Positions 26,695 through 48,407 of a stretch of DNA of 64,000 nucleotides are shown here, in pieces. Within the stretch, counting starts at the first letter, position 1. The number at the start of each line of letters is the position of its first letter. The notes under the pieces were generated by a model. That model saw only the letters and a list, made by a program, of their open reading frames with translations. It was not told the DNA's origin and did no database searches. The stretch comes from Thermoproteota archaeon (GTDB lineage Archaea > Asgardarchaeota > Njordarchaeia > Njordarchaeales > Panguiarchaeaceae). The position numbers and the translations under genes were made by a program. The DNA lies in contig JANJXX010000003.1 in NCBI GenBank assembly GCA_024720975.1, positions 32,001 through 96,000 of the forward strand, read 5' to 3'.

Positions 26695-26847
26695 GGAATC
26701 ACCAAACGAATAATTGTAATTCTAATCTTATCATGAACAAATCGGAGATTTAATATTGCGGTTTATCTGCATCCTACTTTGTTGTGCAGACTTACACCTG
26801 ACTGCAGGCTTCAGCAGAATTCTCAACAATATCTTGGAAGTAACTAG

Positions 26848-28230: not shown

Positions 28231-28237
28231 GTTTGGT

Positions 28238-29077
28238 CTAATCTTCTAGGATTTTCAAATCCTCTTCACTCAATCTCCATCCCATAGTGTCAATATTTTC
28301 CTTAATGTGATTTCGATTTTCCGACTTAGGTATTGCGACAACAAGGGGCTTTGAAATGAGCCAATTGAGTGCAATTTGTGCAGGAGTCTTCCCATATTTC
28401 TCCGCTAGCTTTATAACATTTCTGAGACGCAGAACTTCTCCGCGCTCAAGTGGGGTGTATGCCATTATGATTATCCCTTCTTTTTGACAGTATGGGATTA
28501 TTTCCTTTTCTGCACTACGGTCGAGTAGGCTATATTTCACTTGATTAACAACTATGTCCGTTACCGACAGGTAGCTTCTAGCTTCCTCGAGTAACTCTTT
28601 ATCAAAATTGCTAACACCAATATACCTGATTAGACCATCATTGTATAGTTTTTCCATTGCTCTCATTGTCTCTGATATGGGAATCCTAGGATTGGGCCAG
28701 TGCACTAGGTATAAGTCTATATAGTCAGTTTGAAGTCTCCGCAAGCTACCCTCTGCTGCCTTAACAAGTTTGTTATAGCTTAAATTTTCGGGTTTAACCT
28801 TAGTAGTTATAAAAACTTCCTCTCTGGAAAAACCCCTTAATGATTTACCTACAAGTTCCTCGGAATGGCCAGCCCCGTACAATTCTGCTGTATCTATTAG
28901 AGCTAGTCCTACTTTTTCTATACTGTACCCAATCCCGAATTTCAGTGCATCAATCCACAACGAATCCTTGCTATAATTTGGAGCGTAATTCCCTCCTATT
29001 CTCCACGTACCCATACCGATAGCTGGGATTTTGTCCATCGATCCCTTAATGGGTTTCAGATCTGAAGTATCTATCAT
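28238..29077 (-). CDS. Aldo/keto reductase
   Basis: GMGTW, IDTAELYG, ITTK, DLYLVHWP, IGVSNF, NQV.Y, AYTPL, AQIAL.W, IPKS. Confidence 0.95.
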   Translation of the reverse strand: MIDTSDLKPIKGSMDKIPAIGMGTWRIGGNYAPNYSKDSLWIDALKFGIGYSIEKVGLALIDTAELYGAGHSEELVGKSLRGFSREEVFITTKVKPENLSYNKLVKAAEGSLRRLQTDYIDLYLVHWPNPRIPISETMRAMEKLYNDGLIRYIGVSNFDKELLEEARSYLSVTDIVVNQVKYSLLDRSAEKEIIPYCQKEGIIIMAYTPLERGEVLRLRNVIKLAEKYGKTPAQIALNWLISKPLVVAIPKSENRNHIKENIDTMGWRLSEEDLKILED

Positions 29078-29106
29078 CTAAGTTCTCCGCAATTTACCAA
29101 TTTTGA

Positions 29107-30987
29107 CTATTCAAGCCCAAGGCGATTTCTTATCTTTTTGACTAGTGGTATTGCGTCTTCTAAGCCTAGGTTCCTGAGGACTTCTGGTTTTGATACCCCG
29201 TATTCATCATATCCTATACCCTCGTAGTAAGCTTTCTTTAGTTCATTTACCTCTTGCTCATTAGCTTTCTTACCTTTGTGTGGGCCGCTCGGCAAAGGTT
29301 CATAAAACCTTGGTGGGTTGTCATCATGGACACGCGGATCCCATTGTATGTCTGGCCCTCCTAGCAATAGTAAAAGTCTTTGAATGTGTATTATGCGCGG
29401 CGCTGTCTGGTTTATCCATTCCTCCACAGTCATATTCCAGCCGGTAACTGAGTTTAGGAATTGTATTAATACATCAAAGTTTGTCCAGTACGTGAATGAA
29501 CATATCACTGCAGAATCAGTAAAAACGGCCTCTATCTCTCCCGCTGGTACTTTAGGATCACTGAAAGCCGCTGATGTATGATCTCCACCTTGGACGGATA
29601 CAGCATATCCTATTGGGGATGGGTAATCCTCTCCACTTCTTATTCCATGAGCGCCAACGGCTATACCCTTCACTTCGACAGCAAACCTTGCAGCGTCTAT
29701 GCCCTTGATTTTGCCGATTATCCTTGCAGCTCTGTGTGTTCCCTCGGCCAAAACGCCACCTATACCTTCTCTATTTGCTATCATTTGCATCAACTTAGCA
29801 AATGCATCGGTATCTCCCCACCTAAGCTCAAAGCCAACATCATTTTTGCTCAAAATTCCTTTCTCATATAACTCTGCTGCGAAGCCTAAAACATTTCCCG
29901 TGTTTATAGCATCAAGACCTAGTTCATCAGCTAGGTATGATAGGTATATTATCTCCTCAGGTTTGAATATTCCCAGGTTTGTCCCGAGATACGCCGCTAG
30001 TTCATAGTCTGGTGCGTCAGTCTTAGCACCCTTATATTTTCCATGACGTATGTAAGATATTTTCATGCAAGTAACTGGGCAACCATAATCACCCCAGTAC
30101 TTCTTTACCCAATAGCCCAACTCGAAGTTTACAACACTGATCTCTTTCCTATCATGCCACTCCTCTTGCCAGTTTCGAATAGGCTCACTTGAGGTTCTGT
30201 ACCCAAATTCATAGCCACCAGCTCCTGTGCCCCATGCTCTAAACGTTGTAATTTCTAGTAACTGATGTTGAATATCCCTAAGCAGTTTCTTATACTCCTC
30301 AAAATTTGCTACAGGTGGCAGAGGCCCATTTCCTTTGACAACAATTGCTTTTAAGTTCTTTGATCCCGCTACGGCACCGTATCCTCCATAACCTGCCGCG
30401 TGAACGAATTTTGCCATAATAGATGCAAATCTAACCTTTCTCTCTCCACCTCTTCCTATATAGAGAATCGCTGGTTCTTTCGGCAATCCACTTCTCCCTG
30501 CTAATTCTATCACCTCCCTGTGTGATTCACTCATTAACTCTGAGAGAAAGTCACTGGGACCTCTTCCCCAATATTTCCGAGCATCTTTAATATCGACATG
30601 GTCATCAACTAGTAAGATATACTTCGGCTCTTCCGCTCTTCCTCTGATAATCATTCCATCATAACCAGCTGCTTTGAGCTCAATAGCTACCTCACTTGAG
30701 ATTGTAGAACCCACCACACCATTGCTCTCAGGCGACTTGCCAGTTATACAGAGCTTTATTCCAGGATAGTAGCCTGAGAGAGGCCCTGTGAGAATCAACA
30801 ACAAATTCTCAGGACCAAGAGGATCTATTTCCTCCCACTTATCCCCAAGCTCTTTCCAGAGAATGTATGTTCCTAATCCTCGACCTCCGAGCCAATTCCT
30901 GTACACACCTTCTGAAAACTCCTTGACTCTTATCTTCTCCCTAGATAGATCTACTTCAAGGATCTTGCCAGTAAATCCATATGGCAT
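29107..30987 (-). CDS. aor: Tungsten-containing aldehyde:ferredoxin oxidoreductase family, large subunit
   Basis: GKILEVDLS, LGGRGLG, DPLGPEN, KSP, AAGYDG, GSKNLKAI, DYE, DELGLD, GGDH. Confidence 0.9.
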   Translation of the reverse strand: MPYGFTGKILEVDLSREKIRVKEFSEGVYRNWLGGRGLGTYILWKELGDKWEEIDPLGPENLLLILTGPLSGYYPGIKLCITGKSPESNGVVGSTISSEVAIELKAAGYDGMIIRGRAEEPKYILLVDDHVDIKDARKYWGRGPSDFLSELMSESHREVIELAGRSGLPKEPAILYIGRGGERKVRFASIMAKFVHAAGYGGYGAVAGSKNLKAIVVKGNGPLPPVANFEEYKKLLRDIQHQLLEITTFRAWGTGAGGYEFGYRTSSEPIRNWQEEWHDRKEISVVNFELGYWVKKYWGDYGCPVTCMKISYIRHGKYKGAKTDAPDYELAAYLGTNLGIFKPEEIIYLSYLADELGLDAINTGNVLGFAAELYEKGILSKNDVGFELRWGDTDAFAKLMQMIANREGIGGVLAEGTHRAARIIGKIKGIDAARFAVEVKGIAVGAHGIRSGEDYPSPIGYAVSVQGGDHTSAAFSDPKVPAGEIEAVFTDSAVICSFTYWTNFDVLIQFLNSVTGWNMTVEEWINQTAPRIIHIQRLLLLLGGPDIQWDPRVHDDNPPRFYEPLPSGPHKGKKANEQEVNELKKAYYEGIGYDEYGVSKPEVLRNLGLEDAIPLVKKIRNRLGLE

Positions 30988-30998
30988 CCGAGATCACT

Positions 30999-31532
30999 TT
31001 AATCAAACATTTTCTTAGACAACGCCAAGCTCTTTTCCCTAGGATCACCTGCAAATGTACTGAACACTGGACGATACAACCCCCTGTAAAGTTTTAGAGC
31101 ATTGTAGCCGGCTTCATTACATATCTTCACGCACTTAGGCTCGCCATTGCATAGATCACATATTACAACAGTCTTCTTGCCCTTCGGAATTCTCGGAACT
31201 TTCCCAGGACACGCTTCTATGCACTTACCACATCCAATACATTTCTGATCATCTACTATAACAGCGCCAGTCGCCTCATTGACACTAAGAGCCCCGACTG
31301 GACAACTTTTAACGCACGGATAATCTAAGCATTGAACACATAGATGCGGTACTGGAGCTCCATAAGCCTCCTCAAAAATCCTTATCCTCGATGCTTCTGG
31401 CCATATAGTGCCCTCATGTTCCAGAGCACAAACTACTTCGCATAGCCTACAGCCAGAGCAACTCCCATAGTCCACTAGTATCCATAATCTGTTTGCTTCT
31501 CTAACCAAGATAATCACCGACATTTTACGCAA
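30999..31532 (-). CDS. 4x[4Fe-4S] polyferredoxin partner of the AOR-family enzyme
   Basis: CSGCRLCEVVC, CVQC...C...CP, CIGCGKCIEACP, CDLC...C..IC. Directly upstream of the AOR gene. Confidence 0.9.
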   Translation of the reverse strand: MRKMSVIILVREANRLWILVDYGSCSGCRLCEVVCALEHEGTIWPEASRIRIFEEAYGAPVPHLCVQCLDYPCVKSCPVGALSVNEATGAVIVDDQKCIGCGKCIEACPGKVPRIPKGKKTVVICDLCNGEPKCVKICNEAGYNALKLYRGLYRPVFSTFAGDPREKSLALSKKMFD

Positions 31533-31651: not shown

Positions 31652-34600
31652 TTAGTAGTTACCGTTACCGTCTGGCTCCAAGGCATCTGGTTCTCCATCA
31701 TACGAATCCATAAAGCAAATACCTGATATCGTTGCATTTTCAACAGTGCTTGCATTAGGATGAGGTTTAATTAGCCACTCTCCTTGCGAATCTTTGTAGA
31801 GAACTATTACACGCGTGTTGCTGTAGTCATGAAATGTCCATTGTACAGTACTTATTAACAGCACAATCTTACCAGCGAGTATATTGGGGTTCCAATCTCC
31901 TGATACTAGATAGAATCCTGGTGTATAGTAGTAAATTACCCACCAGAACATTACTATTTCAACTTCAAAGCTCATTAGAACCATGGACCATGCATCACCA
32001 TCTTCAACACCTTCCCAAGGTGATAATAAACCGTATACGTCTTCCTTCTCTGGTCTACCGATTATTGTAAGGTATTCGTCATCGTACTGGCTATCAAGAT
32101 AGGCATTTCCAATGTAATCATGGAAGGCATCGGTCCATTCAATATCTATCGTGGCACTGAGATCTTTAGTGCCACCACCTCCAAACCAAATGGAGTACGA
32201 TGGCAGACTTGATGGAGCATCCTGTATCTGGGGTGATATGTAGTATTGCGCGGGGTCATGTGCTAGTGGATTAGAATTCTTATCTAGTGCTTTTAATTCT
32301 TCAGCCTCACTAGATTTGTATGAACCACTTGTCCAGCTTCCTGTTGATGGCGGATCATCACCAGTATCATTGTCTTCGAAGAATATTGGATCATCATCCC
32401 ATACTATCAACATTGAGTAATATACTAGCCATTCAGGACTCATAGGCACCTCTATCTTAAAGTATACTGTAACATACACCCATTGGTTGAAGTCTATGGC
32501 TGGGGAAAGCCCCGACATACCTTTGAATTTTATCGTATTTGCTAATGAGGAGGTATCGTATATTCCTGTGAAGTTTAGTTTGCTGAGTTTGACATCGCGT
32601 ATGTAGCATCCCCAAATCTTTAGATCAAACGTTACGTTTACTATGCTAAAGTTGTAGCAGTGATATTTTACCATGCTCCACAGCCAATCTTTAAGTGTGG
32701 TGTTTGAGAAACCGCGAAATCTATTTACTCTCCAAAGTCTGACTTGTACATCAAAGTAGCTATCTTTACCAGCTTCCATGGTTAGATTGTTTATATACAC
32801 CTCACCAAAGAAGTCATCTAATGTCCCAGAGGCTTGTTGGCCAGCTTTGCTACCAAAGTGATATCTTCCATTATAAACCAACAGAGCCTTAAAGTTCTCG
32901 AGTCCTACATTAAATCCTAAGCTACCCACGGCCTGGTGATAATTAAGGAGAATCCAGTTATAGTTCCACAGATTTATATTGCTTGGATTATTATTCCACA
33001 CTGGAACTGCATAATTAGCAGCATTTTCGATGCCTCCATATAGGTCATTTGTGTAGTACGTTCCATAACCTATCGGTACAAGAGCAACAGCATCGGCATT
33101 TATGCCATTGACGTAAGTTTTAACCATTGAGTTTAATGCCGTTTGAATGACATCGGGTGTTATGATGAACATGAATTTCGCAGATAGTGCTTCAAGATTG
33201 CTTATATTAACACCGAATATTTCAAGATCTATCTTAGTACTCGCCCATACGTTTATTGACCATCCTTTTAAGGTTGCATCTAGGAACTCTTGTAAGTATC
33301 TGTTCTTAAGAAATACTATCTCTATCGTTACATTCGAAGGGACCCCGGCCCTCAGATCCGCTACTCCAACTATTTTTTGTATTCCAAAAGCCGTGTATGT
33401 GTTAAGAGGCTCCATGTGTAGAATTGTCTCCATTCTAAGTATTTTTATGTTCAGAGAGCTTTGCACTGGTTCAATTAATCTTATGGTAGCAGAAAGCTTA
33501 TCCTCACCAATTACCTTCCAAGATAAGTTCTCGGTGCTGTATCTAATTACATTGTTTAATAAAGCCGATGCATCAACTTCACCCTGCATTAGGGCTTCGT
33601 AGTAATCGCTTACGCAGTATCGAGTGTTGTTATACTTGAAGTTTATTTCAAGTACTAAGTAGTTCGAATCAAAGAGCCTTATTCTTACTGAGCCCCAAAC
33701 GTCCATTGTAACATTCTTTTTCACGAGCAGATCCTGTAAAAATCCTTGAAGTGCAATTCTGTTTGACTTGAATATAGTTACGTTTACACCAAACGTTGTG
33801 TTTTTATCCAAACTTAATTCTAGGTATGAAATGAATACGTTAGCTACTTTGACGCCGCCATATAGTATATCCACACTTAGGTTGTTAACTTCTACAGGTA
33901 TCTTAGACTTGGACACAGTCACATTGATATTTAGCAGCGCTGTTGAATAATCTTCCCCTAGTACTGTTATACTTCCTACAGTCATATTGAACATACTCAA
34001 AACGGTTTCTTGAACACCTGAAGACTCTAGTTGTTCACTTACGTTCCAACCGAATACCTGTCTGAGTGATATGTTTTGGACGGTGATTCCAAAGAGGCTG
34101 ATTCTGCCAACTCTTGCGTCTACATTAATCTCGATGTTGTAGTTGTTTATTAAGTTCATGAGAAATTCTGCCGTTTTTGGTCTGTCCGCGAGCATTATAT
34201 ATGCGACTATTGTGGTATTACCTAAGGCCGCTTCGATCTTAGGAACATTTATTTTGGCCACTACAGTATTGTCTTTGATTAATTTAGCATTTATATCATA
34301 CGCTGCGAACGATATGTTGAATCTATTCATAAAGTCTACTTCCGCACTAAGAACATAATATTTAACTTGATCCTGCTGATCATAGAAGCTACCAACGTAG
34401 TTGAGACTCTTGTACGCGATAAGCGATTTAAAGTCTACTGGTACTATTCCGGCGCTCGCGTTTGTGGCCGACATGTTAAAGGTTAAACCTTTTAAGTCTA
34501 GAGACAAATTCAAGGTTAAATATTGTGTTGAGCTGTCAAATAGTTGGACCACTATAGATCCGTTAACATTAACAACAGCGTTATTACCCGCTAGATAATC

Positions 34601-37600
34601 TTCAATAAACTTTCTAAGTGCAGGCGAACCTTTGAAGATTGTAATATCTAAGGATATACTTGTTGGCTGAATGGGTGATAATACCATATTGTTGCCACGC
34701 AGTCTGGCGATCTTACCTAGATCATTGCTGACGTCAAGGTTCATTTCATGCACTTTAATATAAACAGGCGTGCTATTGATGCTAAGACTAACTGTTACGT
34801 TTGCTGTGTATTCATCCTCACCCCAAACTTTTACTTGATCTATACCATATAGTGGAAAGAGGCTAGGCGTTATAGTGTTTGCTCCAGTGTTTATTTGCTG
34901 CGAGAGATTCATTGCTTGACAGAGGTTGTAATCGAAGCTTAGGTCATCTATTTCCGCTCCTAGGAATAGCAAGTCCGTAGAACCTCTTATTGTTACATTT
35001 ATGACGCCTCCAGAGATTATACTTTCCAGCAAGTCCTTTGCTCCTGGATTATCGTATATAGCTAGGTGCACCGATATATTTGACCAGTTATCTGGAAGAA
35101 GTGTATATGGTCTGTTTATGAAGATCTTAAGCGCTTCATAACCTGAATTAGATATCGTGATTTTAGTATCCCCTATAGTTATAGGCGCCGCTATTGGGAT
35201 CTTCAGGGAGGCATTTACCTCTAGGTCATAATATTGTCTAGCACCAAAGGTTTTTTGAGAGATGCCGAGGAGCTTAAACAGATCTTGCAGAGGTATGAAA
35301 GTGTATGGCGAAACTACTGAGCCATTGGCTGAATTATAGGATTCAAGGCTTTGGTTTAATGAGAGTTCTATCGGAATTTCGTTTATCCTGTATCCAAATA
35401 CCATTAAATCGAGTTTTCCAGAGACGTTGACACAAAGTATTTTCCTTTCAACAATATCTCTAATGAGTTTCTCTAAGGGTAAATTGTTCGGTCTGTATAA
35501 GAGAACTATCGTAGCATTTACTTTCGAAGTTGCTCCGCGGGTCATTTCCGCACCTGGAACTAGAACGTAACCAATTGATCCAAAGTTGTTTTCGAGCGTT
35601 AAGTTTAGGTTATAAATAGATACGCTTATTGGAACTTCTGTGATGCTGATGGATACATTAACCTCGAACTTCTGTCCATCGTAGTTCGTCGAGACAAGCT
35701 GAGCATTGGTAACGTTTATCAATGGCGCGGCAGCGGTTGCTTGTGGGAGCTCTTGCTTTGATAGATCGGCGAAGATTTTACTTGCAAGTGATATCTGTGA
35801 TATATTTAGTCCAAATAAGGATATTGATGCTACACCGCTAATTGTTACATTGATGCATCTCTGCCGTAGCAATTCCTCTAGAAAACTTTGAGTTGCTGGT
35901 GTATCCTTAATTTCTAGATATATTTTCATGGTTACATTTTGACCAGGAGCCACACTATAGGAGCCTGCAGAACATATTTCCGCAACTGTATAATCTCTAT
36001 AAATTACCTTGAAGCTTAGATATTCAATTCCCAGAGAGACATTAATGAAATTGTTGAATACATACTCAATTAGGAGCGTTCTTGGTCCTGTTTGCTCAAA
36101 CCTCTTAAGCGCCAGGATATTCTCTATATTAAGGGGAACTATTGATTCCGATAATGAGTCTGAGGATGACGTGTAACTTACGTTTTTAAGACTTATTTGA
36201 ACGGTAAAGTTCCATTCTAAGAGTTTCAAATATGCAGACACATTTAAGTCAACTATGGCATCCCCCTCGATGAGATCACCAATTATTTCTGCTGTGACAT
36301 CCTTCTTGTAGAATAGTACTTCAATTACGATGTTCATGAAATCCTTACTAAGATCAAGTGAGTCTACAAATACAGCCTCTATTGCTTTCTCTCCTCCCTT
36401 GCTTAAAACTGCTTTTAAGTCCCACACAGTGACAGGTAGCATGTACTCATTCGTTAGGTTTAGCTTTATCAAGATTTTTGCTAAGGTGGCGTTTTCCATT
36501 AATGTATCTATGTATAACTTATTTATTTTGAGTCGCCCAAGTGGCAAAGGACTTGATCCAAGGCTCTGCTGTCCGACGAGTTCTGTGCTTAACCTGTATG
36601 CGAGATTATATGTGATATTAACATTTATCACTTCAATACCATAGAATGTTATGTTCCCGTAACCCTTGATGGATGCATTGAAAATGCTATTTTCTATTAG
36701 ATCCTTAAGAAACTTATAAGTCTCATTCCTGCTAAATACATACATGTCGACTATTAAACTGGATGTTTCTTTCGGTCGCACCAGAGCATCGCTTATGAAC
36801 ACTCTAGCAACGGTAAGTTGATCTCTGATTACTTCTATTGAGAATGGCCCAACAGCGGCATCTACTCCGTACGGGTTCTTGAATGAAATTGATGTATTGA
36901 AATGATATGCTTTTATACCATTGATTATTTCCTCGCCTATGTACTTAAATTTATCTATGCTTACAGCAAGATTTGGAAGGGCACTAGCTTCGATAATCGC
37001 TTGAGTATTAGGAATTGATGTTATGTTGCTTAGCTTGAATGGCAAGGTTACATTCACGCCAAATATTTCGGCTGTGACTTCTCCACTTATTACTAGCGAG
37101 TGAAGTTTACCCTCGATTATTCTCTTAAGAACCTCTGCTGTGTACTCTTTATTTGATTTGTGTATCTTTATGTAAGCTTTTATTTGTTTTCCGTTGACAG
37201 TATTATACAAATCTATTGTAGAGTTTGAGCTCAAAGTTATTGCTGGAAGACTCCAGCCAATAAGCGATATATTCACTTCATACTGAAATACCTTTACGGG
37301 CAAGTGATCAAGCCTAGCCGAAAGAGATATCTCTAGCAACGTCTCACTTTGATTGTCATAAATTATGGAAATATCCTCTAGATCTAAACCTCCTAGTCCA
37401 CCTATATCCTGATATCCACCCACGCCAACACTATCAGTTATATTCACTAGTAGTCTTTGGATAAACGTTATTTGTGGAAATTCTACCCCAAATATTTTGA
37501 TGCCCACTCTTCCATCGATTGAAGCATTTATAAGCCCATTACAAGCCAGATCAACCAAGAAGTTTCTCATAGCCTCCTTTCCTTTGAATATGTATATGCT

Positions 37601-40549
37601 TACGCTTAGGAGTGTTACTTTCTTGCTTTCCAGTATGTATCTATCTTTCAACATAATTTTTACTAGTCTCTGACCATCTCTGCTTAAGTATATGCTTGCA
37701 TCCCAAAATTCTACCGTTATTCCCATCGTATTGTTAAATGTTACATTTACATCAAATCTAAAGGCATCCTCACCATCAACCTTTGTCTCTCCTGCATATT
37801 TAAATCCCGCGATACGGAATAGATTACTCAACCTAATTGAAGACAGAACTGACTGTTGAGTTTCCTCGGATGACATATCTATGCGAAAGTCTTTGAATGT
37901 TATCACTCCAAAGTCCCAATCAAATAACGACAAAGCTAATGTGGCATCTACGTATAATTCACTAACGTTACCATAAACTAAGCTTCTAATCATATCTACA
38001 AATTCACTCGATTCGTTACGAAGCACTATTTTTAATATCACATCCTTGTTACCTGGTCCTCTTATTGGTTCCTCGAGTATAACTTGAACTGGCGGATTTA
38101 TGCAGTCCTTCCTTAGGCTCACATCAGCAATTAGAAGACTTATAACCATCGGTATAGGTATATCAACAACTGTCTTTATGCGTATTTCGATTCGATTTGG
38201 ATACTCGGTCACATCAAGGAGCTCAACACTTCCACCGCCATAAGTCGATGTTATATCTTTCGTTCCTAAGAGCGTTAATGAGTCCATTAGCGAAACTACA
38301 AAATTCGTCTGAAAGTCTTCTAGGTTTATCTCAACTCCACCTAAGCATGCGGTAATATTTCCACGTATGATCACATTAACTGCTTTTCCATGAAGTGTAT
38401 CGTTTAAGAATTGACGTGCAGATTCCGTCTTGAATATATGTACATTAACAGCAATCAATCTTGATTCGAACTGTGGGATTCGAGTGGATTGCGGTATGAC
38501 AATTTCTAGTGCAGGTTCAATACTATTCGGAGGATATACATAGAGGTCTCCAGGTCCTATGTCTAATTCTGCACCAAATGGGTTAGTTATTGTCGCGTTA
38601 ACATATATTGCATAGCCCTCTAGATTATTAATGACAACTTTACCAGCATATTTAATGCCACTAATCTTGTAGAACTTAGATGCTTCTCCTGCTACTGGGA
38701 CACTACCACTGGAGAGGGAAATCATGCCCCCTCCTGCGCGTATAGGGACGCTATAGAACATTCTGCTGAGAAACTTCATGTCAATTGAACCAATGAACAT
38801 TACATCACTAGTCCACGTGCCTTTGATGAAAGATTTTATAAATTCACCTATGTCTGGAGAGTCTTTTCTGATTCTTATCTCTATTGTTGGCTGGCAAGTT
38901 ACTAGTCCTGTTTCTGACTCTTGATTAAGGTCTATATTTCTGATTTTCACACTTCCTATAGTACTAGAGTTGTATACTATGTTACCTCTAATTTCATATA
39001 TTGCCAAGGGCATTCTTTTATAGGTCAGTGTAACAAGCGAGTTGACTATGAGGTATTTATCTGTTGCGGTTATATTATACTTCATATCAGTTATATTGAA
39101 CCCAGCCATAAGGCTCGATAAGTCGAACCCCTGCCTCATGAATTCGCCCATATCTACTGCAGGAGCACTCACTTGACTAGTAGAGAATGTAGATAGGTCT
39201 ATCTTTTCTATCCATACGCCAGCAAAGTATACATCGGCTGTACCTGCCAAAGAGGCACTAAATTCATTGTTGTAGAGTAACCGGTTTAAGAATGCGTGTA
39301 AGTTCTCATTGTCTATAAAATCTGCACTTATGCGGAATGACCTGTTCTCATTAGGACTTACCAAGATTTTCTCATCTATTCTTACATTAAGAATTGATTC
39401 ATCATTTTCCCCTAGTAGATCAATGTATAGTGGTCCAAAACCTATCGTCCAGTTTAATTTGTTCGTTAGTTCGATCGCTACATCAAATGAGTGCCTTACT
39501 TCACTTCCGATGATTTGTTCCCCTAAGTAGCTTATATCTAGATTGCTGATTCGAAGATTCTTACTCAGCAACTTAAATATCGCATCAAATATTGATGATG
39601 AAGCCCCTGGGGATTGCACTGGTGATAGAAAACCAGAGAATTGAGATATGTCAAATTTTACCTCTGAATTTTCGACCTCTATTCCAAATATCTTCAAGGA
39701 GAGACTTCCTCTTAGCTTGCCACTGACTTTACCCTCTTTTATTGCAAGATTCAGGAAGTTTTCCAGGGCGCTTCCCTTTATAAAACGCAGATGTATTGAT
39801 GTACTGAAGTTACCACTTGCTGAGTCTAGGATGTATTCCGGTATGGTTATATCAAGCACACGGCCGAGACTAGTTAGCAAGCTTAAACTGACATCCCTAA
39901 TTTCTACGGTACCCACTTGGAGTAACTCGGTTGGAACGAAGCCACTTACGAATACCTTTGCCTCGCAGAAGCTTTTTGTCTCGTTAGTGAGTTCGATCTC
40001 TTTGATCTCAAAACTTGGGAAGAAGCTCGAAATCGAGATCGATGCACCGCCTCCTGCCGGGCTTAGGTCAATTAGATCTTTTAACGAAATGTCTAATGGT
40101 ATTCTAATAGCCTCTATCACCCCAAATAGTGATATCGGATATTCAACCCTTATTTTAGCATCTATTTGTTGGGAGGCTAGGTATGTCCTTATTAGTCTCT
40201 TCGTTGCCTCAGTTTTATATAATTTTAATGATACCGTTGATATACCCAACTGACCTGGATCTAGTGTTATTGGACTAAGGTATCCAATACCTATTAACCC
40301 ATCCGTCTGCGAATCTAATACTTTGAAGTTTATTGCAGGAACCCTCGTAGGTAACCAGTGATTGTTTCTAATCAACATCTTTATGCTTAATATGCTAGAA
40401 TCTTTCGTCTCACCAACGAATCTTATGGAGAGGGGCTTGAAGTCCATACCAAGGAGGGGCACTACTGAAATTACATTTACGGCAATATTACCTATAATTA
40501 GCAATATTACAATCGTCAATACTTTTCTCTTAAAGGTCATATACTTCAC
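31652..40549 (-). CDS. Giant N-terminally anchored extracellular protein of ~18 tandem LEA_2/DUF3712-like repeats (start likely ATG 40540)
   Basis: 2965-aa uninterrupted ORF. One N-terminal TM after KRK, ~145-aa beta-rich repeats each with an amphipathic 'FLxxLL' helix followed by 'G.....IFG', many sequons, and an acidic/aromatic C-terminal domain. Confidence 0.8.
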   Translation of the reverse strand: MKYMTFKRKVLTIVILLIIGNIAVNVISVVPLLGMDFKPLSIRFVGETKDSSILSIKMLIRNNHWLPTRVPAINFKVLDSQTDGLIGIGYLSPITLDPGQLGISTVSLKLYKTEATKRLIRTYLASQQIDAKIRVEYPISLFGVIEAIRIPLDISLKDLIDLSPAGGGASISISSFFPSFEIKEIELTNETKSFCEAKVFVSGFVPTELLQVGTVEIRDVSLSLLTSLGRVLDITIPEYILDSASGNFSTSIHLRFIKGSALENFLNLAIKEGKVSGKLRGSLSLKIFGIEVENSEVKFDISQFSGFLSPVQSPGASSSIFDAIFKLLSKNLRISNLDISYLGEQIIGSEVRHSFDVAIELTNKLNWTIGFGPLYIDLLGENDESILNVRIDEKILVSPNENRSFRISADFIDNENLHAFLNRLLYNNEFSASLAGTADVYFAGVWIEKIDLSTFSTSQVSAPAVDMGEFMRQGFDLSSLMAGFNITDMKYNITATDKYLIVNSLVTLTYKRMPLAIYEIRGNIVYNSSTIGSVKIRNIDLNQESETGLVTCQPTIEIRIRKDSPDIGEFIKSFIKGTWTSDVMFIGSIDMKFLSRMFYSVPIRAGGGMISLSSGSVPVAGEASKFYKISGIKYAGKVVINNLEGYAIYVNATITNPFGAELDIGPGDLYVYPPNSIEPALEIVIPQSTRIPQFESRLIAVNVHIFKTESARQFLNDTLHGKAVNVIIRGNITACLGGVEINLEDFQTNFVVSLMDSLTLLGTKDITSTYGGGSVELLDVTEYPNRIEIRIKTVVDIPIPMVISLLIADVSLRKDCINPPVQVILEEPIRGPGNKDVILKIVLRNESSEFVDMIRSLVYGNVSELYVDATLALSLFDWDFGVITFKDFRIDMSSEETQQSVLSSIRLSNLFRIAGFKYAGETKVDGEDAFRFDVNVTFNNTMGITVEFWDASIYLSRDGQRLVKIMLKDRYILESKKVTLLSVSIYIFKGKEAMRNFLVDLACNGLINASIDGRVGIKIFGVEFPQITFIQRLLVNITDSVGVGGYQDIGGLGGLDLEDISIIYDNQSETLLEISLSARLDHLPVKVFQYEVNISLIGWSLPAITLSSNSTIDLYNTVNGKQIKAYIKIHKSNKEYTAEVLKRIIEGKLHSLVISGEVTAEIFGVNVTLPFKLSNITSIPNTQAIIEASALPNLAVSIDKFKYIGEEIINGIKAYHFNTSISFKNPYGVDAAVGPFSIEVIRDQLTVARVFISDALVRPKETSSLIVDMYVFSRNETYKFLKDLIENSIFNASIKGYGNITFYGIEVINVNITYNLAYRLSTELVGQQSLGSSPLPLGRLKINKLYIDTLMENATLAKILIKLNLTNEYMLPVTVWDLKAVLSKGGEKAIEAVFVDSLDLSKDFMNIVIEVLFYKKDVTAEIIGDLIEGDAIVDLNVSAYLKLLEWNFTVQISLKNVSYTSSSDSLSESIVPLNIENILALKRFEQTGPRTLLIEYVFNNFINVSLGIEYLSFKVIYRDYTVAEICSAGSYSVAPGQNVTMKIYLEIKDTPATQSFLEELLRQRCINVTISGVASISLFGLNISQISLASKIFADLSKQELPQATAAAPLINVTNAQLVSTNYDGQKFEVNVSISITEVPISVSIYNLNLTLENNFGSIGYVLVPGAEMTRGATSKVNATIVLLYRPNNLPLEKLIRDIVERKILCVNVSGKLDLMVFGYRINEIPIELSLNQSLESYNSANGSVVSPYTFIPLQDLFKLLGISQKTFGARQYYDLEVNASLKIPIAAPITIGDTKITISNSGYEALKIFINRPYTLLPDNWSNISVHLAIYDNPGAKDLLESIISGGVINVTIRGSTDLLFLGAEIDDLSFDYNLCQAMNLSQQINTGANTITPSLFPLYGIDQVKVWGEDEYTANVTVSLSINSTPVYIKVHEMNLDVSNDLGKIARLRGNNMVLSPIQPTSISLDITIFKGSPALRKFIEDYLAGNNAVVNVNGSIVVQLFDSSTQYLTLNLSLDLKGLTFNMSATNASAGIVPVDFKSLIAYKSLNYVGSFYDQQDQVKYYVLSAEVDFMNRFNISFAAYDINAKLIKDNTVVAKINVPKIEAALGNTTIVAYIMLADRPKTAEFLMNLINNYNIEINVDARVGRISLFGITVQNISLRQVFGWNVSEQLESSGVQETVLSMFNMTVGSITVLGEDYSTALLNINVTVSKSKIPVEVNNLSVDILYGGVKVANVFISYLELSLDKNTTFGVNVTIFKSNRIALQGFLQDLLVKKNVTMDVWGSVRIRLFDSNYLVLEINFKYNNTRYCVSDYYEALMQGEVDASALLNNVIRYSTENLSWKVIGEDKLSATIRLIEPVQSSLNIKILRMETILHMEPLNTYTAFGIQKIVGVADLRAGVPSNVTIEIVFLKNRYLQEFLDATLKGWSINVWASTKIDLEIFGVNISNLEALSAKFMFIITPDVIQTALNSMVKTYVNGINADAVALVPIGYGTYYTNDLYGGIENAANYAVPVWNNNPSNINLWNYNWILLNYHQAVGSLGFNVGLENFKALLVYNGRYHFGSKAGQQASGTLDDFFGEVYINNLTMEAGKDSYFDVQVRLWRVNRFRGFSNTTLKDWLWSMVKYHCYNFSIVNVTFDLKIWGCYIRDVKLSKLNFTGIYDTSSLANTIKFKGMSGLSPAIDFNQWVYVTVYFKIEVPMSPEWLVYYSMLIVWDDDPIFFEDNDTGDDPPSTGSWTSGSYKSSEAEELKALDKNSNPLAHDPAQYYISPQIQDAPSSLPSYSIWFGGGGTKDLSATIDIEWTDAFHDYIGNAYLDSQYDDEYLTIIGRPEKEDVYGLLSPWEGVEDGDAWSMVLMSFEVEIVMFWWVIYYYTPGFYLVSGDWNPNILAGKIVLLISTVQWTFHDYSNTRVIVLYKDSQGEWLIKPHPNASTVENATISGICFMDSYDGEPDALEPDGNGNY
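32525..40447 (-). repeat. Protein-level tandem repeat array (~18 units of ~145 aa, alternating A/B types)
   Basis: Manual alignment. Odd units recur as F/IKY.GE....F.N..G....GP (e.g. FKYAGE, FKYIGE, IKYAGK). Even units recur as E...I.I....(L/I)PV.V..L. No obvious DNA-level identity. Confidence 0.7.
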
Positions 40550-40550
40550 C

Positions 40551-43500
40551 TTAAAGATCTAATTCTTCCGATTCGAATATCTCCAAGAACTCTTTCTCAA
40601 TCTCTTCATAGCTTATTTCTCCTGTCACTGGCGCGGCTTTTTCATGGACACTAAACCTACTTCTTGCAATGAACTTTCTGAGAGCTACAAAAATCGCCCC
40701 AACACAACTAAACGTACCAAGAACAATAAGACCATACATTAAACCGGCCTCACGAGCGGGTTTCACTTCAATCAATTTACTAAGCGATTTATCTTTGTAG
40801 TGCCCATTTCCAAGCACTTCGACTTTGATTAAATGCTCCCCATGCGAATCAGGAACCCATATTATCTCTAGAGGTCCATTATAGATCGTTCTCACGAGTA
40901 GCCTATCACCGACAATTATCGACACAATAACACCAGCAACAGGCTCATTATCATTGTCCGTAATATAAACTTTTATCCTAGCTGCATTCCCAATTTCCAA
41001 TACGCTAGGCACATATACCTGGGCGTTCAAATCTTCTTCAAGAATAGTCAATTGCGTTTCAAATGAGCTGCTAGCATGAATACTCGTTGCTGAGCTTTGG
41101 ATAATGAGTACATACTCGCCTGGTTTAAAGCTCATCCTTACTATAATTTTGGCCGTTCCATTTTCATCTGTTATTGTCGTTACCACTGGGTATTTCACAT
41201 TACTACCATTTGAGAGATAAATTGATATAGGTATTCCCGCTAGAGTCTTATTATCTTGATCGATAAGGATAACATAAATTTCTATGAAGTCGCCGTATTC
41301 TACCATTTGGGGTGATAGTGTAGCGATTATCTCGGTAGAAATCGCTTCTATAACCAACGTGATCTTAGGACTATATACTAGCTCATAGAAGTTGCTCATA
41401 AGCTGTATCTCTAGGTAGTATGTTCCTGGTAGAAAATCTACATAGAATGGATAAGCAAGTCGTATTTGTGGTTTTAGAGTACCATTGTAAATGGTGTACA
41501 AGCCGCTGATAACGACGAATACTTGACCTGAATCATCTATAACTTCTTCTCCGTCGTTATCCGTAAGGAGTATTAATAGCTCCGAACTGTGTTGATAAGT
41601 TACAGTCCATGTGTAACTATTTGAGTATACCATCGCCCTTTCTTTGCATACATACACGTAGTACGTATAGCAAGCTTCACCAACATAGAGGTCACTCCAA
41701 ACTTTGACTATTATTGCTATTTGTTGGAGCGGAATGAACATATTCGTATTGACACTAAGAACAGCTGTGCCATCTTTTACCTCCAGGATTTTACACAGAA
41801 CAGTATTTCCTGAAACAATTGTTATATTAGCTATCCCTTGCACTATTGAGCAATAATCGTCATCAAAGGCATGTATTTTTATTAATAAGGAATCTCCCCA
41901 TTCAATGATACTTGCATTAGTACTTATATCGACGCCTTTGAGAACATCCTTCTCGACAATTAAATTGCGCGCCAGTGAAGCTTCATAAAACTTGTCACTT
42001 TCATAGATCATTATAATGTATACGTACTCGCCAGGAGTTAACCATTTCGGATAGCTACTACTGAGAATACGTACTACTAATCGACCGGATAACGAATAAT
42101 TTCCTCCTAGCAAATAGATGTCATCATTTATTACTACATACACCTCGGCGTATGCGTTCACTGGCACACCGAGTTCGGTTGATACATTAGCGCAGATTGT
42201 ACCACCATCAGAGAATACAATTGTAGCGTCGCTTGATTGAATTACCAAGTGAGCTTTGCTTACAGAAACCGCTACAAAGATCTCTGATGGATAATAACTC
42301 CTCACACTGTCCCCATCAAATGCTACACGAATTTCATATTCGCCCTCGGGCAGATTCACAGCCCAGTTTATTATAGCCTTACCAGATCGGTCTGTATACC
42401 CTTCAGCTAGGATTTCTCCTCCGTACGATAGATACACATATGCGTTGGATACAGGATCTCCGAACATATCCACTAGGATTATCTGTGCCACGACTGTCTC
42501 GCTCCAAACCGGCGAATTTGTGCTTAGTGAAATTGTTATGCTCGTTAGTAACCAAACATGTACCCAAACAATGTTAGACTTTGATTTAAATACAGTGTCA
42601 TTGAGACAAAACTCGAGTCTGAGGTAACCCGCTGGCGCGTGCAATGATGCCAGATCCACAACCACTTGACTATTCTCTCCATTATAATATATTTCAATCG
42701 TATGCATTAAGCCACTTGAGTTATACACATTGATGTATACTTTTTGTCCTTCAAGGGGGATAATGCCTCCATCGTTTCGATATGCACTAAATACTATCGT
42801 GATAGTCTCGTTAGCTAGGGCATTTATTTCCGATGCATTGAATGAGAAAATTACCTCTTCCTCCCTAATGGAAAGGCGCAAACAATATACAGAGAATGAG
42901 GAGTCACTTTCCCTATCATTATCCAGATCATAAATTGTTATCTCAATGTCGCAATCCCCAGCACGCAGTGGAGTGTCTATGATTAGAAGCAGCTCGAATA
43001 GAGTTCCATTTGTGTACAATACTTGAGCTTGTTTCACTAGCACTATACTATAAATCTTTATTACTATTGTTTCATTAACTCCGCTTGGATCACTCACAGA
43101 TATTCTAATACTTAGGCCCTCGTCAGCCTCAATAATACCATCTCCAGTGCCACTACTAAGATACTCTGATACACTTACATTGTGTATAACCGGTCCGTCG
43201 ATGTCATCATCTAGAATTTCCCCGTATGTTATGAATGAGCGTGCTACGGCAGCATCTCCCTGCCAATCATTATCTTTATCGTATGCTATTACTTCAAGAG
43301 AGAATGCAGACCCGACATAGTTTATCCAAATATTCCTCGGGATTATAATATATGCCGTATTTCCATTCCAGTAAATTGAATTGTTGTTGTATGTTATTGC
43401 TACATTGTACTTTTGGAAGTACACTATAAATGTCACAGAGCCTACTCCACTTTCTTGATCAGTTATAACGGCCCATATAACTAAGTCCTCGTTACTTGAG

Positions 43501-45611
43501 TCATATATCGTTATATAATTTCCAGGGAAGACTATTTCAGGCGGGTTTGGATCATCATCAACAAGCTCGACATAGAATCTTTGACTTATAACAGCATTGC
43601 CAGCTTTGTCGATACACTTTGCCTCCCAATACAGTTTCTTCCCTACATGTGGTTTCCATTCACTTGCGGATATCACTATCCGAAACTCTCCACTTATATA
43701 ACTTGCTACAATCCAATCACTCCAGTTTGTGCCACCATAACTATATCGTATTAGCACGCGCTCAACACCACTTATCTGGTCGCTGCACACAACACTAAGA
43801 ACTATATTATTAGTCGCATTGTCTAGGAACACTGTTCCAATTTGAGGTGAATAGCTAAGAATTCTTGGGGCTATTGTGTCTATCTGAATCGGTCCTTTTC
43901 TAGCGCTCTCATTCTCATTACCGGCGCGATCTACTGCGACGACACTTATGCTCCAAACACCCGACGGCAATCCAATGGTTGCATAGAGTTGCTCGTATGG
44001 ACCATACCAGTTAAAAAGAGAACCACTGCTATAGTTATAGACTCGTACCATATAGCATCTTATGCCACTCATACTATCCGTACTTTGACTCCATGCTATG
44101 TATACATTACTAGTATTGTACCATTTCGTGGAACTAGGTTGGGGATTTATGTTTATTATCTCAGGTTTCGTTGGTGGTACAAAATCTACGTTTATTCCAT
44201 GCTCCCAACAAAGCTCCCAAACTTTAGTTCTACTTAGATCAGTTCTCCAAGAGAGCAACCCATTTATAAACTCGAATATTGTTGTGGGTTTATAAGTTCT
44301 TACAACATACCAAATATCCGAAATACTGATACTCAGCGAATCTCCAATGCCATCGCCATCTTGATCATCATCACTTGAATCATATAGATCCCATAGAACA
44401 GCGGCGACACTACTTGCGACATCAAAATCATTGCGTGAGTTATCAGAATCGTAAAGCGTTTCTAAATCGCGAAGTTCAAAGTTTTCACTGCTTATGTAAT
44501 AGCGCTTTATAACTTCTGAGAGAAATATCGACCAACCAACAACCCAAGCTGTTTTTGGGTCTGTGTGAACATTAAAGTTATAGTTGCGCTCAAAGCTAGG
44601 TAATACGCTGCGTTGTGCCAGCAAAAATTGTGCAAAGGCCATGAAGAACTCCGTGTAGTTTGTAGCAGCTGCTGCCCATAGTCTTTTATCGGTAGTGTTA
44701 TAGAAATAAACGCTAGTTTGGGCTGGGTATGTTATATTTAATCCGGGTAAGCTGCTTTCACCTAAGACGCTGATTGCAAAATCTCTAGCTAGCATTGCAA
44801 ATAACATGATCTCTCCAGCTGGTCCTCCAAGAACATATACAATGGATTGAGGGGGTGTTACATAGCTAACGGTTGTGGCATCATTCTTATAAAGTTGTTG
44901 CCCGGATATTGGATCGGTCCAATAAGAACCTTGGATATATAGACTGTACGCACCTCCACCTAAATTGGAGTAGTCGTTATACATTCGGTATAGGTAAACT
45001 CTGTTGCTCGGATCGTATATAGCAACAACATTGGATATATCTGTATAAAATTGAAGAACAGGGTCTCTATTGCTAAGCTCCCCCCAATCAAACGCATCGT
45101 AGACTACACAGAAAGCTCCTTGACTGTCGGTTCTCGTAGATATTATAAATTGCCCACTGGGAGTATAACCGTCGCTATAGGGCTCTCCAGAGTCCTGATC
45201 CCAAACGTCCACTAAGATGCCCTGTATAGTTTTATACGCACCAGAGGATGTCCGTGAATATGGATCTCTGACTTTGACATAACCATAAAGGCGAACATCG
45301 CCGCTAGGAATACTAGGTGTTCCTGAGGTTATGTAGTAGTATAGATAGGCTAATATGACTGGATCCGTGTTTACCCTAGCTTTAAGTATATCTGCCTCGT
45401 TGGCATGCTTGAGCTTTGTTTTGGAGTGCGATACCACAATTACATTTTGTGCATTCTTGGTACCTCCTCTGTGAGCATCGGTATGCAAATCATCTGCTGC
45501 TTTGGAATCCACCCGCAGGTTTTTTATGTTTGCACTAATGATTGGATCTACTATCACTGCTAAAAATATTATTGAGACGAGCATAAACCTAATTATTTGA
45601 ATTTTGTCCAA
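40551..45611 (-). CDS. Large cell-surface protein: transthyretin-like and degenerate zincin-like head, FN3/Ig-like stalk, C-terminal TM anchor
   Basis: Signal peptide, VDVWDQD...TDSQGAF, VAAVLWDLYD, repeated D.xPP/DDD..P modules with A.DRAGN and AYDKDND motifs, TD..G.A Ig-like repeats, then TM, RK and an acidic tail. Confidence 0.75.
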   Translation of the reverse strand: MDKIQIIRFMLVSIIFLAVIVDPIISANIKNLRVDSKAADDLHTDAHRGGTKNAQNVIVVSHSKTKLKHANEADILKARVNTDPVILAYLYYYITSGTPSIPSGDVRLYGYVKVRDPYSRTSSGAYKTIQGILVDVWDQDSGEPYSDGYTPSGQFIISTRTDSQGAFCVVYDAFDWGELSNRDPVLQFYTDISNVVAIYDPSNRVYLYRMYNDYSNLGGGAYSLYIQGSYWTDPISGQQLYKNDATTVSYVTPPQSIVYVLGGPAGEIMLFAMLARDFAISVLGESSLPGLNITYPAQTSVYFYNTTDKRLWAAAATNYTEFFMAFAQFLLAQRSVLPSFERNYNFNVHTDPKTAWVVGWSIFLSEVIKRYYISSENFELRDLETLYDSDNSRNDFDVASSVAAVLWDLYDSSDDDQDGDGIGDSLSISISDIWYVVRTYKPTTIFEFINGLLSWRTDLSRTKVWELCWEHGINVDFVPPTKPEIININPQPSSTKWYNTSNVYIAWSQSTDSMSGIRCYMVRVYNYSSGSLFNWYGPYEQLYATIGLPSGVWSISVVAVDRAGNENESARKGPIQIDTIAPRILSYSPQIGTVFLDNATNNIVLSVVCSDQISGVERVLIRYSYGGTNWSDWIVASYISGEFRIVISASEWKPHVGKKLYWEAKCIDKAGNAVISQRFYVELVDDDPNPPEIVFPGNYITIYDSSNEDLVIWAVITDQESGVGSVTFIVYFQKYNVAITYNNNSIYWNGNTAYIIIPRNIWINYVGSAFSLEVIAYDKDNDWQGDAAVARSFITYGEILDDDIDGPVIHNVSVSEYLSSGTGDGIIEADEGLSIRISVSDPSGVNETIVIKIYSIVLVKQAQVLYTNGTLFELLLIIDTPLRAGDCDIEITIYDLDNDRESDSSFSVYCLRLSIREEEVIFSFNASEINALANETITIVFSAYRNDGGIIPLEGQKVYINVYNSSGLMHTIEIYYNGENSQVVVDLASLHAPAGYLRLEFCLNDTVFKSKSNIVWVHVWLLTSITISLSTNSPVWSETVVAQIILVDMFGDPVSNAYVYLSYGGEILAEGYTDRSGKAIINWAVNLPEGEYEIRVAFDGDSVRSYYPSEIFVAVSVSKAHLVIQSSDATIVFSDGGTICANVSTELGVPVNAYAEVYVVINDDIYLLGGNYSLSGRLVVRILSSSYPKWLTPGEYVYIIMIYESDKFYEASLARNLIVEKDVLKGVDISTNASIIEWGDSLLIKIHAFDDDYCSIVQGIANITIVSGNTVLCKILEVKDGTAVLSVNTNMFIPLQQIAIIVKVWSDLYVGEACYTYYVYVCKERAMVYSNSYTWTVTYQHSSELLILLTDNDGEEVIDDSGQVFVVISGLYTIYNGTLKPQIRLAYPFYVDFLPGTYYLEIQLMSNFYELVYSPKITLVIEAISTEIIATLSPQMVEYGDFIEIYVILIDQDNKTLAGIPISIYLSNGSNVKYPVVTTITDENGTAKIIVRMSFKPGEYVLIIQSSATSIHASSSFETQLTILEEDLNAQVYVPSVLEIGNAARIKVYITDNDNEPVAGVIVSIIVGDRLLVRTIYNGPLEIIWVPDSHGEHLIKVEVLGNGHYKDKSLSKLIEVKPAREAGLMYGLIVLGTFSCVGAIFVALRKFIARSRFSVHEKAAPVTGEISYEEIEKEFLEIFESEELDL

Positions 45612-47616: not shown

Positions 47617-47696
47617 AGGAAGGCACCAACTGCTGAACTTGATAGTGTTATGATAGATTCATTGGTGAAATTTTACCTCCACCCGGTTAATGGCTG

Positions 47697-48407
47697 CTAA
47701 TAGTATTCATAATCTGAATAATCTTCAGACTCGTTGTATCCGTGCTCCACTATTGTGTATACTATAGCAGTTTTATACCCCAGCATACGACGCATAAATT
47801 TACTACGAAAGACTATTGCAAAAAGTATCCCGCCTATGATGCCACCAATGTGCGCATAGTGAGCGATAGTTGGAAATATGCCCACAATAGCAAACAATGT
47901 GAAGAGTGCCACTAGCATTGTGATCATTGCCCATGCGGGAAGAACAAGGAATGCGAAAAAGACAAACATGGCTATTCTTCTTTGAGGATAGAGAACAGCA
48001 TAAGCCCCTAAAATTCCAAAGACTGCTCCTGATGCTCCAAGCGCTGGGATGTCTTTGTAGGGACATAAGAGGATGTGCATAAACGCACCAAGAAGCCCAG
48101 AGAGAAAGTACAGAAGTGCAAATGCCTTATGACCAAAATTGCGTTCACACTCTGGCCCAAACATATATAGAGCGTACATGTTAAAGAATATGTGAAGAAA
48201 ATCAGCATGGAGAAACATGTGAGTTATTATAGTCCAAAGCATGGCACCGCGTAGAACTGCATTCGGACGCAGAGCGAAGTAATTGATCATAAGCGCTGGA
48301 TTAATGAGTTCTAAAACGAAGATAACTAGGTTTGATATTATTATAGATTTAACCACAATAGGATTGAAACGATAGGGTTCTAGTCCGTGTTCGTACCAGA
48401 AAACCAT
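47697..48407 (-). CDS. Rhomboid intramembrane serine protease
   Basis: HMFLHADFLHIFFNM, catalytic GASG and AHYAHIGG. Confidence 0.95.
   Translation of the reverse strand: MVFWYEHGLEPYRFNPIVVKSIIISNLVIFVLELINPALMINYFALRPNAVLRGAMLWTIITHMFLHADFLHIFFNMYALYMFGPECERNFGHKAFALLYFLSGLLGAFMHILLCPYKDIPALGASGAVFGILGAYAVLYPQRRIAMFVFFAFLVLPAWAMITMLVALFTLFAIVGIFPTIAHYAHIGGIIGGILFAIVFRSKFMRRMLGYKTAIVYTIVEHGYNESEDYSDYEYY

Follow-up and report, generated by a model that had tools for sequence, protein, structure and literature searches.

A 64,000-nucleotide stretch of an Asgard archaeal genome (GenBank assembly GCA_024720975.1, contig JANJXX010000003.1, positions 32,001 to 96,000; hereafter the window) carries on its reverse strand a gene for a giant protein of 18 tandem units, which profile searches and structural models place in the LEA-2 superfamily. 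Directly upstream lies the gene of a second giant, the immunoglobulin (Ig)-like protein P0002. We infer that the array protein is a glycosylated stalk with a binding head at its end and works with its Ig-like partner, probably in contact with a partner cell or a substrate, a reading to which we assign a probability of about one half.

The identity of the units is supported by Pfam, in which the whole protein matches DUF3712 (PF12505) over three stretches (E 7e-18, 65.6 bits against a cut-off of 24.1) and LEA_2 (PF03168) once. The DUF3712 model is a LEA-2 domain that begins at strand 4 in one copy and ends at strand 3 in the following one (bioRxiv 10.1101/2021.03.12.435176), and the best DUF3712 stretch in the array protein straddles units 15 and 16, from the second half of the former to the first half of the latter. 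The alternation of LEA_2 and DUF3712 domains described in an earlier, sequence-only reading of this DNA (the initial annotation) therefore dissolves into a single domain type, because DUF3712 is LEA-2 out of register. The LEA_2 pattern that it placed in the first unit is found by Pfam in unit 16 instead. Its proposal to compare each repeat with PF03168 and PF12505 was borne out for a minority of units: scanned singly at E<=1, 1 of 18 matches LEA_2 and 3 of 18 match DUF3712. The remaining units are linked to LEA-2 by the internal profile and by fold. At the same threshold, Pfam gives only these two families for the protein, with Tag1_N, Tag1_M, Tag1_C, LEA-2_1 and LEA-2_4 unmatched and with no signature of the Chorein_N/VPS13/AsmA/TamB type. 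Nor did any S-layer family model in Pfam or NCBIfam match at E<=1, so that, at the level of sequence, the protein does not fall into a described S-layer family; a match to one would, by the initial annotation's own terms, have refuted its proposal. A search of PDB sequences with the 18-unit profile retrieved nothing relevant (best match FliK, E 0.18).

Structural modeling points in the same direction. Units 7-10 were modeled with AlphaFold2 from a 29-row alignment of non-overlapping four-unit homologue windows, giving a pLDDT value (predicted local distance difference test) of 77.9 and a predicted template-modeling score (pTM) of 0.64; units of the A type defined below reach pLDDT 85-94, and the three linkers fall below 50. 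As assigned by DSSP, each of the four modeled units has seven strands and one helix, which is placed between strands 5 and 6. In a VIA search of 48,161 PDB chains, the top structural match was 3but_A (Z 9.7, 124 of 125 residues aligned, root-mean-square deviation 6.8), with Arabidopsis LEA14 (1XO8, Z 6.3) at rank 2. The luminal domain of TMEM106B (8b7d) scored Z 5.6, and the weaker matches included the lipid-chaperone beta-sandwiches UNC119B (Z 6.2), PDE6D (Z 5.6) and RhoGDI (Z 4.6). Pfam, the modeled fold and 3BUT as its closest structure thus agree with the previous count of about 18 LEA-2-type units. Shape neighbors in the ESM Atlas were fungal Tag1/DUF3712/LEA-2_n clusters and bacterial LEA_2 proteins, with template-modeling (TM) scores of only 0.24-0.37, in line with the resemblance to fungal Tag1/DUF3712 arrays proposed before. 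Foldseek comparison of the multidomain four-unit model with the PDB gave generic multi-Ig matches only (TM 0.12-0.19).

A hidden Markov model seeded on one unit and iterated over the protein recovered 18 units. Against the refined internal profile each scores 51-108 bits; the period is ~134-155 amino acids (aa) and a unit measures ~142 aa, as against the ~145 aa first given. The unit alignment shows the elements described before (strands, N...P turn, F-L helix and G...FG hairpin), and the quoted helix motifs lie at the expected spacing. The array is not gapless and does not run end to end as had been supposed; its units are parted by linkers 8-20 residues long with a high content of Ser, Gly, Thr, Pro and Gln. 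The insert ahead of the recognizable part of unit 18 has no Pfam match, and in P0006 this region is larger by ~130 residues. The 26-unit homologue P0006 (4,270 aa, locus L003) has an extra Asp/Trp/Tyr-rich insert of ~130 residues between its last two units (residues ~3740-3875), which is likewise without a Pfam match.

Two subtypes of unit can be told apart. A tree was built from 62 units of three homologues. On it, odd units 3-15 form one clade with the odd units of the 26-unit homologue and even units are placed elsewhere. Unit parity changes 3 times on this tree where 21 changes are expected, 0 of 2,000 shuffles come down to 3, and the parity signal also holds inside single proteins. As judged from the unit sequences, the array alternates two LEA-2 subtypes, A at odd and B at even positions, and this alternation argues that it grew by duplication of an A-B cassette. 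Unit number varies among homologues, from 18 here to 26 in P0006, whose additional units are duplicated middle A/B cassettes; orthology is one-to-one for units 1-5 and for the last two.

Conservation is concentrated at the distal end. Compared with P0006, units 1-15 are 22-34% identical, whereas units 16-18 and the ~290 residues at the C-terminus, together the best-conserved part of the protein, reach 40-46%. The C-terminal head retains the motifs WDDDP, DAPxSLPxY, YDDE, MFWW, SGD and EPD..GN. It has no Pfam match at E<=5 and no usable hit in the ESM Atlas, and its only homologue among longer proteins is another Njordarchaeota fragment. AlphaFold2 gave no credible fold for the C-terminal 496 residues from a 5-row alignment (pLDDT 37.4). 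In BLASTP comparisons, the shorter Asgard arrays P0016 and P0039 align to the array protein (P0001) and to P0006 within the unit array only and not in the head.

Membrane topology and surface signals are consistent with an extracellular array. The putative signal-anchor, preceded by KRK, is the protein's highest hydropathy window (Kyte-Doolittle 2.55) and contains neither Cys nor lipobox. A whole-sequence scan revealed no second credible transmembrane segment, and neither a lipobox Cys nor a C-terminal sorting signal, in accordance with the single type II-like anchor already predicted; P0004, P0005 and P0006 share the conserved N-terminus. N-x-S/T sequons number 75 against 29.0 +/- 4.8 in shuffled sequences (9.6 standard deviations above), a density of 2.53 per 100 aa compared with 0-1.1 in cytosolic neighbors, which show no sequon enrichment. 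P0002 is also enriched (24 versus 13.2 +/- 3.3 in shuffles). The sequon density and the lone N-terminal anchor uphold the earlier placement of the array outside the cell, and we predict a type II (N-in, C-out) extracellular membrane glycoprotein. On the contig of P0006, a gene for an STT3/AglB oligosaccharyltransferase lies just downstream of the giant pair (L003:27917-28256; pair L003:5444-27084), which fits heavy N-glycosylation.

The array gene and the P0002 gene are closely joined. The open reading frame first called (31652..40549, 2,965 codons) is indeed a single open frame, but its start requires correction: the GTG at 40549 sits within a Shine-Dalgarno-like GGTGA box, and an ATG at 40540 lies 5 nucleotides past this box. 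From this arrangement, we take ATG 40540 as the true start, giving a product of 2,962 aa. The database copy P0003 begins at the same ATG and has the same length, and P0001 is the identical frame read from the GTG. The ATG lies 10 nucleotides after the stop codon of P0002, and the identical gap occurs at the orthologous loci L006-L009, which are 62% identical and keep the gene pair. This junction with its ribosome-binding box, conserved at those loci, argues for co-transcription and translational coupling; the array gene is thus the downstream of two cistrons, probably coupled in translation to P0002. No intrinsic-terminator-like site was seen downstream of the array gene in a scan of bacterial type, which says little for archaea.

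P0002 combines an N-terminal signal and Big_1/CarboxypepD_reg-type domains with a C-terminal transmembrane segment and a short cytoplasmic tail, and the membrane anchors of the two giants are therefore at opposite termini. In L003, P0006 is adjoined by a 2,804-aa partner that aligns with P0002 at 24% identity over 1,148 aa (E 9e-27; N-terminal head region E 3e-7), with the gene order inverted relative to the window. The pair persists across lineages that are only 23-31% identical. Complex prediction for the N-terminal head of P0002 with the C-terminal head of P0001 (score 0.00, the fold of the partner being uncertain) speaks neither for nor against an interaction. The features of the locus are collected in Table 1.

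Table 1. Features of the array protein gene and its partner (positions in the window; residues numbered along the array protein).
Feature	Position	Strand	Residues	Basis or detail
Array-protein gene (P0003/P0001)	31652..40540	-		ORF list, translation, start and Shine-Dalgarno-like box, identical database protein
Junction with P0002	40541..40553	-		Sequence reading: P0002 TAA 40551-40553, GGTGA box 40546-40550, ATG 40540
N-terminal signal-anchor, KRK before it	40451..40522	-	~10-33	Top hydropathy window
Array of 18 LEA-2 units	32531..40441	-	37-2673	Internal profile, unit alignment, A/B tree
Unit 1	40049-40441	-		Internal profile
Unit 2	39602-40012	-		Internal profile
Unit 3	39152-39550	-		Internal profile
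Unit 4	38684-39100	-		Internal profile
Unit 5	38264-38671	-		Internal profile
Unit 6	37844-38242	-		Internal profile
Unit 7	37412-37819	-		Internal profile
Unit 8	36980-37387	-		Internal profile
Unit 9	36560-36964	-		Internal profile
Unit 10	36137-36526	-		Internal profile
Unit 11	35732-36133	-		Internal profile
Unit 12	35318-35719	-		Internal profile
Unit 13	34880-35266	-		Internal profile
Unit 14	34457-34849	-		Internal profile
Unit 15	34013-34420	-		Internal profile
Unit 16	33599-33985	-		Internal profile
Unit 17	33134-33532	-		Internal profile
Unit 18	32531-32830	-		Internal profile
Units 7-10 as modeled	36125..37837	-	905-1475	AlphaFold2
Best DUF3712 stretch	33875..34261	-	2097-2225	Pfam
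LEA_2 match in unit 16	33680..33904	-	2216-2290	Pfam, 29.1 bits against a cut-off of 25.4
Gly/Tyr/Asn/Trp-rich insert of ~100 residues between unit 17 and recognizable part of unit 18	32831..33133	-		Alignments
C-terminal head, acidic and aromatic-rich	31655..32530	-	2674-2965	Alignments
P0002, 1,686-aa Ig-like giant, upstream	40551..45611	-		Pfam and sequence

Immediately upstream of the pair (45820-48407, reverse strand) are genes for a DUF2070 membrane protein and for a rhomboid intramembrane protease. They are syntenic in the 62%-identical loci and not found beside P0006; the rhomboid protease could shed or process single-pass giants. Downstream, a co-oriented block (24928-31532, reverse strand) encodes a ferredoxin, an aldehyde:ferredoxin oxidoreductase, an aldo/keto reductase, an FGase-like protein and urocanase. 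This block is conserved in relatives and looks like a histidine/amino-acid fermentation module unrelated to the giant.

The 18-unit profile retrieved 199 proteins at E<=1e-3 from 1.84 billion representative proteins. Relatives occur in GTDB genomes labeled Candidatus Njordarchaeota, as befits the archaeal origin initially assigned to this DNA. The nearest are fragments of further orthologue lineages at 33-55% identity, followed by type II-anchored proteins of 4-7 units named Hodarchaeales, Helarchaeota, Promethearchaeota, 'Asgardarchaeia' or 'Korarchaeota' and, beyond these, by giants of fungi and alveolates and by short LEA_2 proteins. A survey of 301 genomes of the phylum places the giant in 5 of 5 from the genus and in the single genome of a sister family; the order's two remaining families gave no hit (0 of 7 and 0 of 1 genomes). 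Within its own genome, all matches to the LEA-2 unit profile and to DUF3712 lie in the array gene alone. P0007 (RLI88952.1), labeled Altiarchaeales, is a fragment collinear with the giant at 33% identity, and P0013 (MEM2637143.1), labeled Korarchaeota, is a four-unit relative. Both labels are probably binning or taxonomy artifacts, since the Panguiarchaeum-type lineage was earlier placed with Korarchaeota.

Scores per domain bear on whether the array reflects a eukaryotic connection. Short LEA_2-type proteins of 1-2 domains score 24-46 bits, as high as the other Asgard arrays, and named fungal and other eukaryotic members score lowest, with best values of 14-24 bits; no special eukaryotic affinity is therefore seen. 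We considered a DUF3712 array as a special link between Asgard archaea and eukaryotes and reject it for now, given these fungal scores. No literature connecting Asgard archaea with LEA-2 or DUF3712 was found.

The array protein can be set against several known systems. Archaeal LEA-2 proteins, such as the Af_0446 fragment solved as 3BUT and the ~311-aa two-domain Thermococcus-type protein (Levine 2021), share the domain of seven strands and one helix, the N-terminal membrane attachment and the placement of the LEA-2 domains outside. The giant differs from them in having 18 (and up to 26) domains rather than 1-2, a signal-anchor without lipobox Cys, A/B cassettes, a C-terminal head and an obligatory pairing with an Ig-like giant, and it is too divergent for a profile match to PDB sequences. 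Among fungi, Saccharomyces cerevisiae Tag1 has 3 LEA-2 domains and Ustilago maydis UM15053 has 15, and some members exceed 4,000 aa (bioRxiv 10.1101/2021.03.12.435176). These DUF3712/Tag1 proteins share type II topology, long tandem LEA-2 arrays and out-of-register DUF3712 matches with the archaeal protein, but they are vacuolar or luminal and described as gapless, whereas the archaeal array faces outside and has linkers. As far as the sequences indicate, the likeness is architectural, with no evidence of a special Asgard-eukaryote link. A further comparison is with the Asgard proteins of 4-7 recognizable units, named 'DUF3712 domain-containing proteins', from Hodarchaeales (MHA1213943), Helarchaeota (MHA1298307), 'Asgardarchaeia' (MGQ4834325) and Promethearchaeota (MHA1340953), which have the N-terminal anchor, the tandem LEA-2 units and a high sequon density but only 600-2,000 aa and ~20% identity. 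The SPEARE proteins of Nanohaloarchaeum antarcticus are very large surface proteins of a genome-reduced, lipid-dependent archaeal symbiont, for which a part in host contact is proposed. By description, they resemble the array giant in size, surface exposure and symbiont host, and they differ in domain composition.

On the stalk reading, the ectodomain would be a long segmented rod of 18 LEA-2 beta-sandwich modules, alternating A and B and joined by short flexible linkers, that arose by duplication of a two-domain cassette and carries a conserved distal end consisting of units 16-18 and an acidic head of ~290 aa. If extended, it might reach ~80-100 nm from the membrane, assuming ~4.5 nm per domain. 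Made from the same transcript as the C-terminally anchored Ig-like giant, it would form with that protein surface fibers attaching a genome-reduced, lipid-auxotrophic Asgard archaeon to partner cells or to a substrate. The array would be chiefly a spacer, shielded by glycans and of evolvable length, with binding left to the head. We favor this reading because of the flexible linkers, the variable unit number, the conserved distal head, the dense glycans and the conserved giant partner. A simple stalk presenting a tip domain, which the initial annotation held only as a fallback to a lipid-transfer bridge, thus fits the linkers, the unit number and the head best. Several observations weigh against it. 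The head has no recognizable fold or family and no known binding target. The pTM of the four-unit model exceeds the expectation for four independent beads, and a fixed interdomain geometry may exist. LEA-2 would be an unusual choice for a pure spacer, for which Ig/Fn3-like modules, as in the partner, are usual, and this choice hints at an extra function in the units.

The genomic context bears on lipid supply. The genome of this archaeon (81% complete) gave no hit for 3-hydroxy-3-methylglutaryl-CoA reductase (HMGR), polyprenyl synthase, geranylgeranylglyceryl phosphate synthase (PcrB) or any UbiA prenyltransferase, nor for Fe-ADH_2, the family of glycerol-1-phosphate dehydrogenase. The UbiA and polyprenyl synthase profiles match in 14 of 14 control genomes. 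CarS is encoded (G000:C11:275166-275669). Searches for HMGR, PcrB and UbiA were positive in 0 of 5 genomes from the genus versus 8 of 9 from the order's other families. The same loss of lipid-core genes has been published for Panguiarchaeum, an Asgard archaeon that co-occurs with Thermoproteota and is proposed to be an obligate symbiont, in a preprint that makes no mention of surface proteins (bioRxiv 10.1101/2025.02.13.637844). The absence of these genes from the genus implies that the organism must import lipid cores, which raises the prior for a lipid role of the array.

We weighed, as a tentative alternative, that the tethered 18-module fiber takes lipid cores from a host membrane and passes or reels them back to the cell, where CarS and head-group enzymes would remodel them. 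The fold of the units lends itself to this idea: their best match, 3BUT, has a conserved hydrophobic groove of 27 x 6 x 7 Å with unmodeled lipid-like density in the crystal (Levine 2021, bioRxiv 10.1101/2021.03.12.435176), and lipid-chaperone sandwiches recur among the weaker matches. However, for no LEA-2 domain does lipid binding go beyond prediction (same source). The genomic evidence is likewise divided. The giant occurs in every genome of the genus that lacks the lipid-core genes, as the sole gene matched by LEA-2 or DUF3712 profiles in the genome studied here, which retains CarS; yet the sister-family genome (G078) has arrays together with HMGR, PcrB and UbiA, PcrB is encoded by 3 of the 5 other genomes in the phylum that give weaker unit-profile hits, and the shorter relatives named from other Asgard lineages are common. 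The anatomy is less favorable, in that the linkers are flexible and of low confidence, the unit number varies, the head rather than the units is the most conserved part and the groove of 3BUT has one closed end. Flexible linkers and a groove of this kind make a continuous conduit of the VPS13 type unlikely. Repeating beta-groove (RBG) proteins such as VPS13, ATG2 and TamB would share with the array only the proposed job of a long repeated-beta protein spanning two membranes; they form one continuous beta-groove, while the array is modeled as a string of closed sandwiches of seven strands and a helix on flexible linkers. The boldest form of the idea, a lipid-acquisition organ of an obligate symbiont whose head reaches the host envelope so that isoprenoid cores are extracted for remodeling by CarS, we consider rather doubtful.

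Least probable is a general protective coat, in which the two giants would substitute for a glycocalyx or S-layer and stabilize the single membrane of a thermophile with no role in partner contact or lipids: the very dense sequons on both proteins, their anchors at opposite termini, the desiccation- or stress-related annotation of LEA_2 proteins (one relative is named 'LEA14-like dessication related protein'), the kinship with the stress protection ascribed to LEA_2/WHy proteins and the occurrence of shorter arrays in Asgard archaea not known as symbionts would suit such a coat, but the lack of an S-layer family match in Pfam or NCBIfam, the restriction of the giant to one genus and a sister lineage (0 of 7 genomes in the neighboring family), which is odd for an essential wall component, and the conserved distal head, which suggests a specific ligand, make it improbable.

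To conclude, these findings extend LEA-2 arrays in prokaryotes from 1-2 domains to 18-26 and indicate that 'DUF3712' labels on Asgard proteins reflect a tandem LEA-2 architecture, so that a eukaryotic affinity should be read from them with caution. The Asgard archaea are the closest prokaryotic relatives of eukaryotes, and Panguiarchaeum-type Njordarchaeia have been put forward as the first obligate symbionts to come from this group. With its conserved pair of giant surface proteins, one of them built from the genome's only domain family predicted to bind lipid, this locus offers a concrete, lineage-specific candidate for how such lipid-auxotrophic archaea may attach to their partners and obtain lipids, a question that they share with DPANN symbionts. 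If a lipid-acquisition organ proved true, it would represent a new kind of extracellular lipid scavenging and provide a first experimental handle on the membrane supply of a symbiont.

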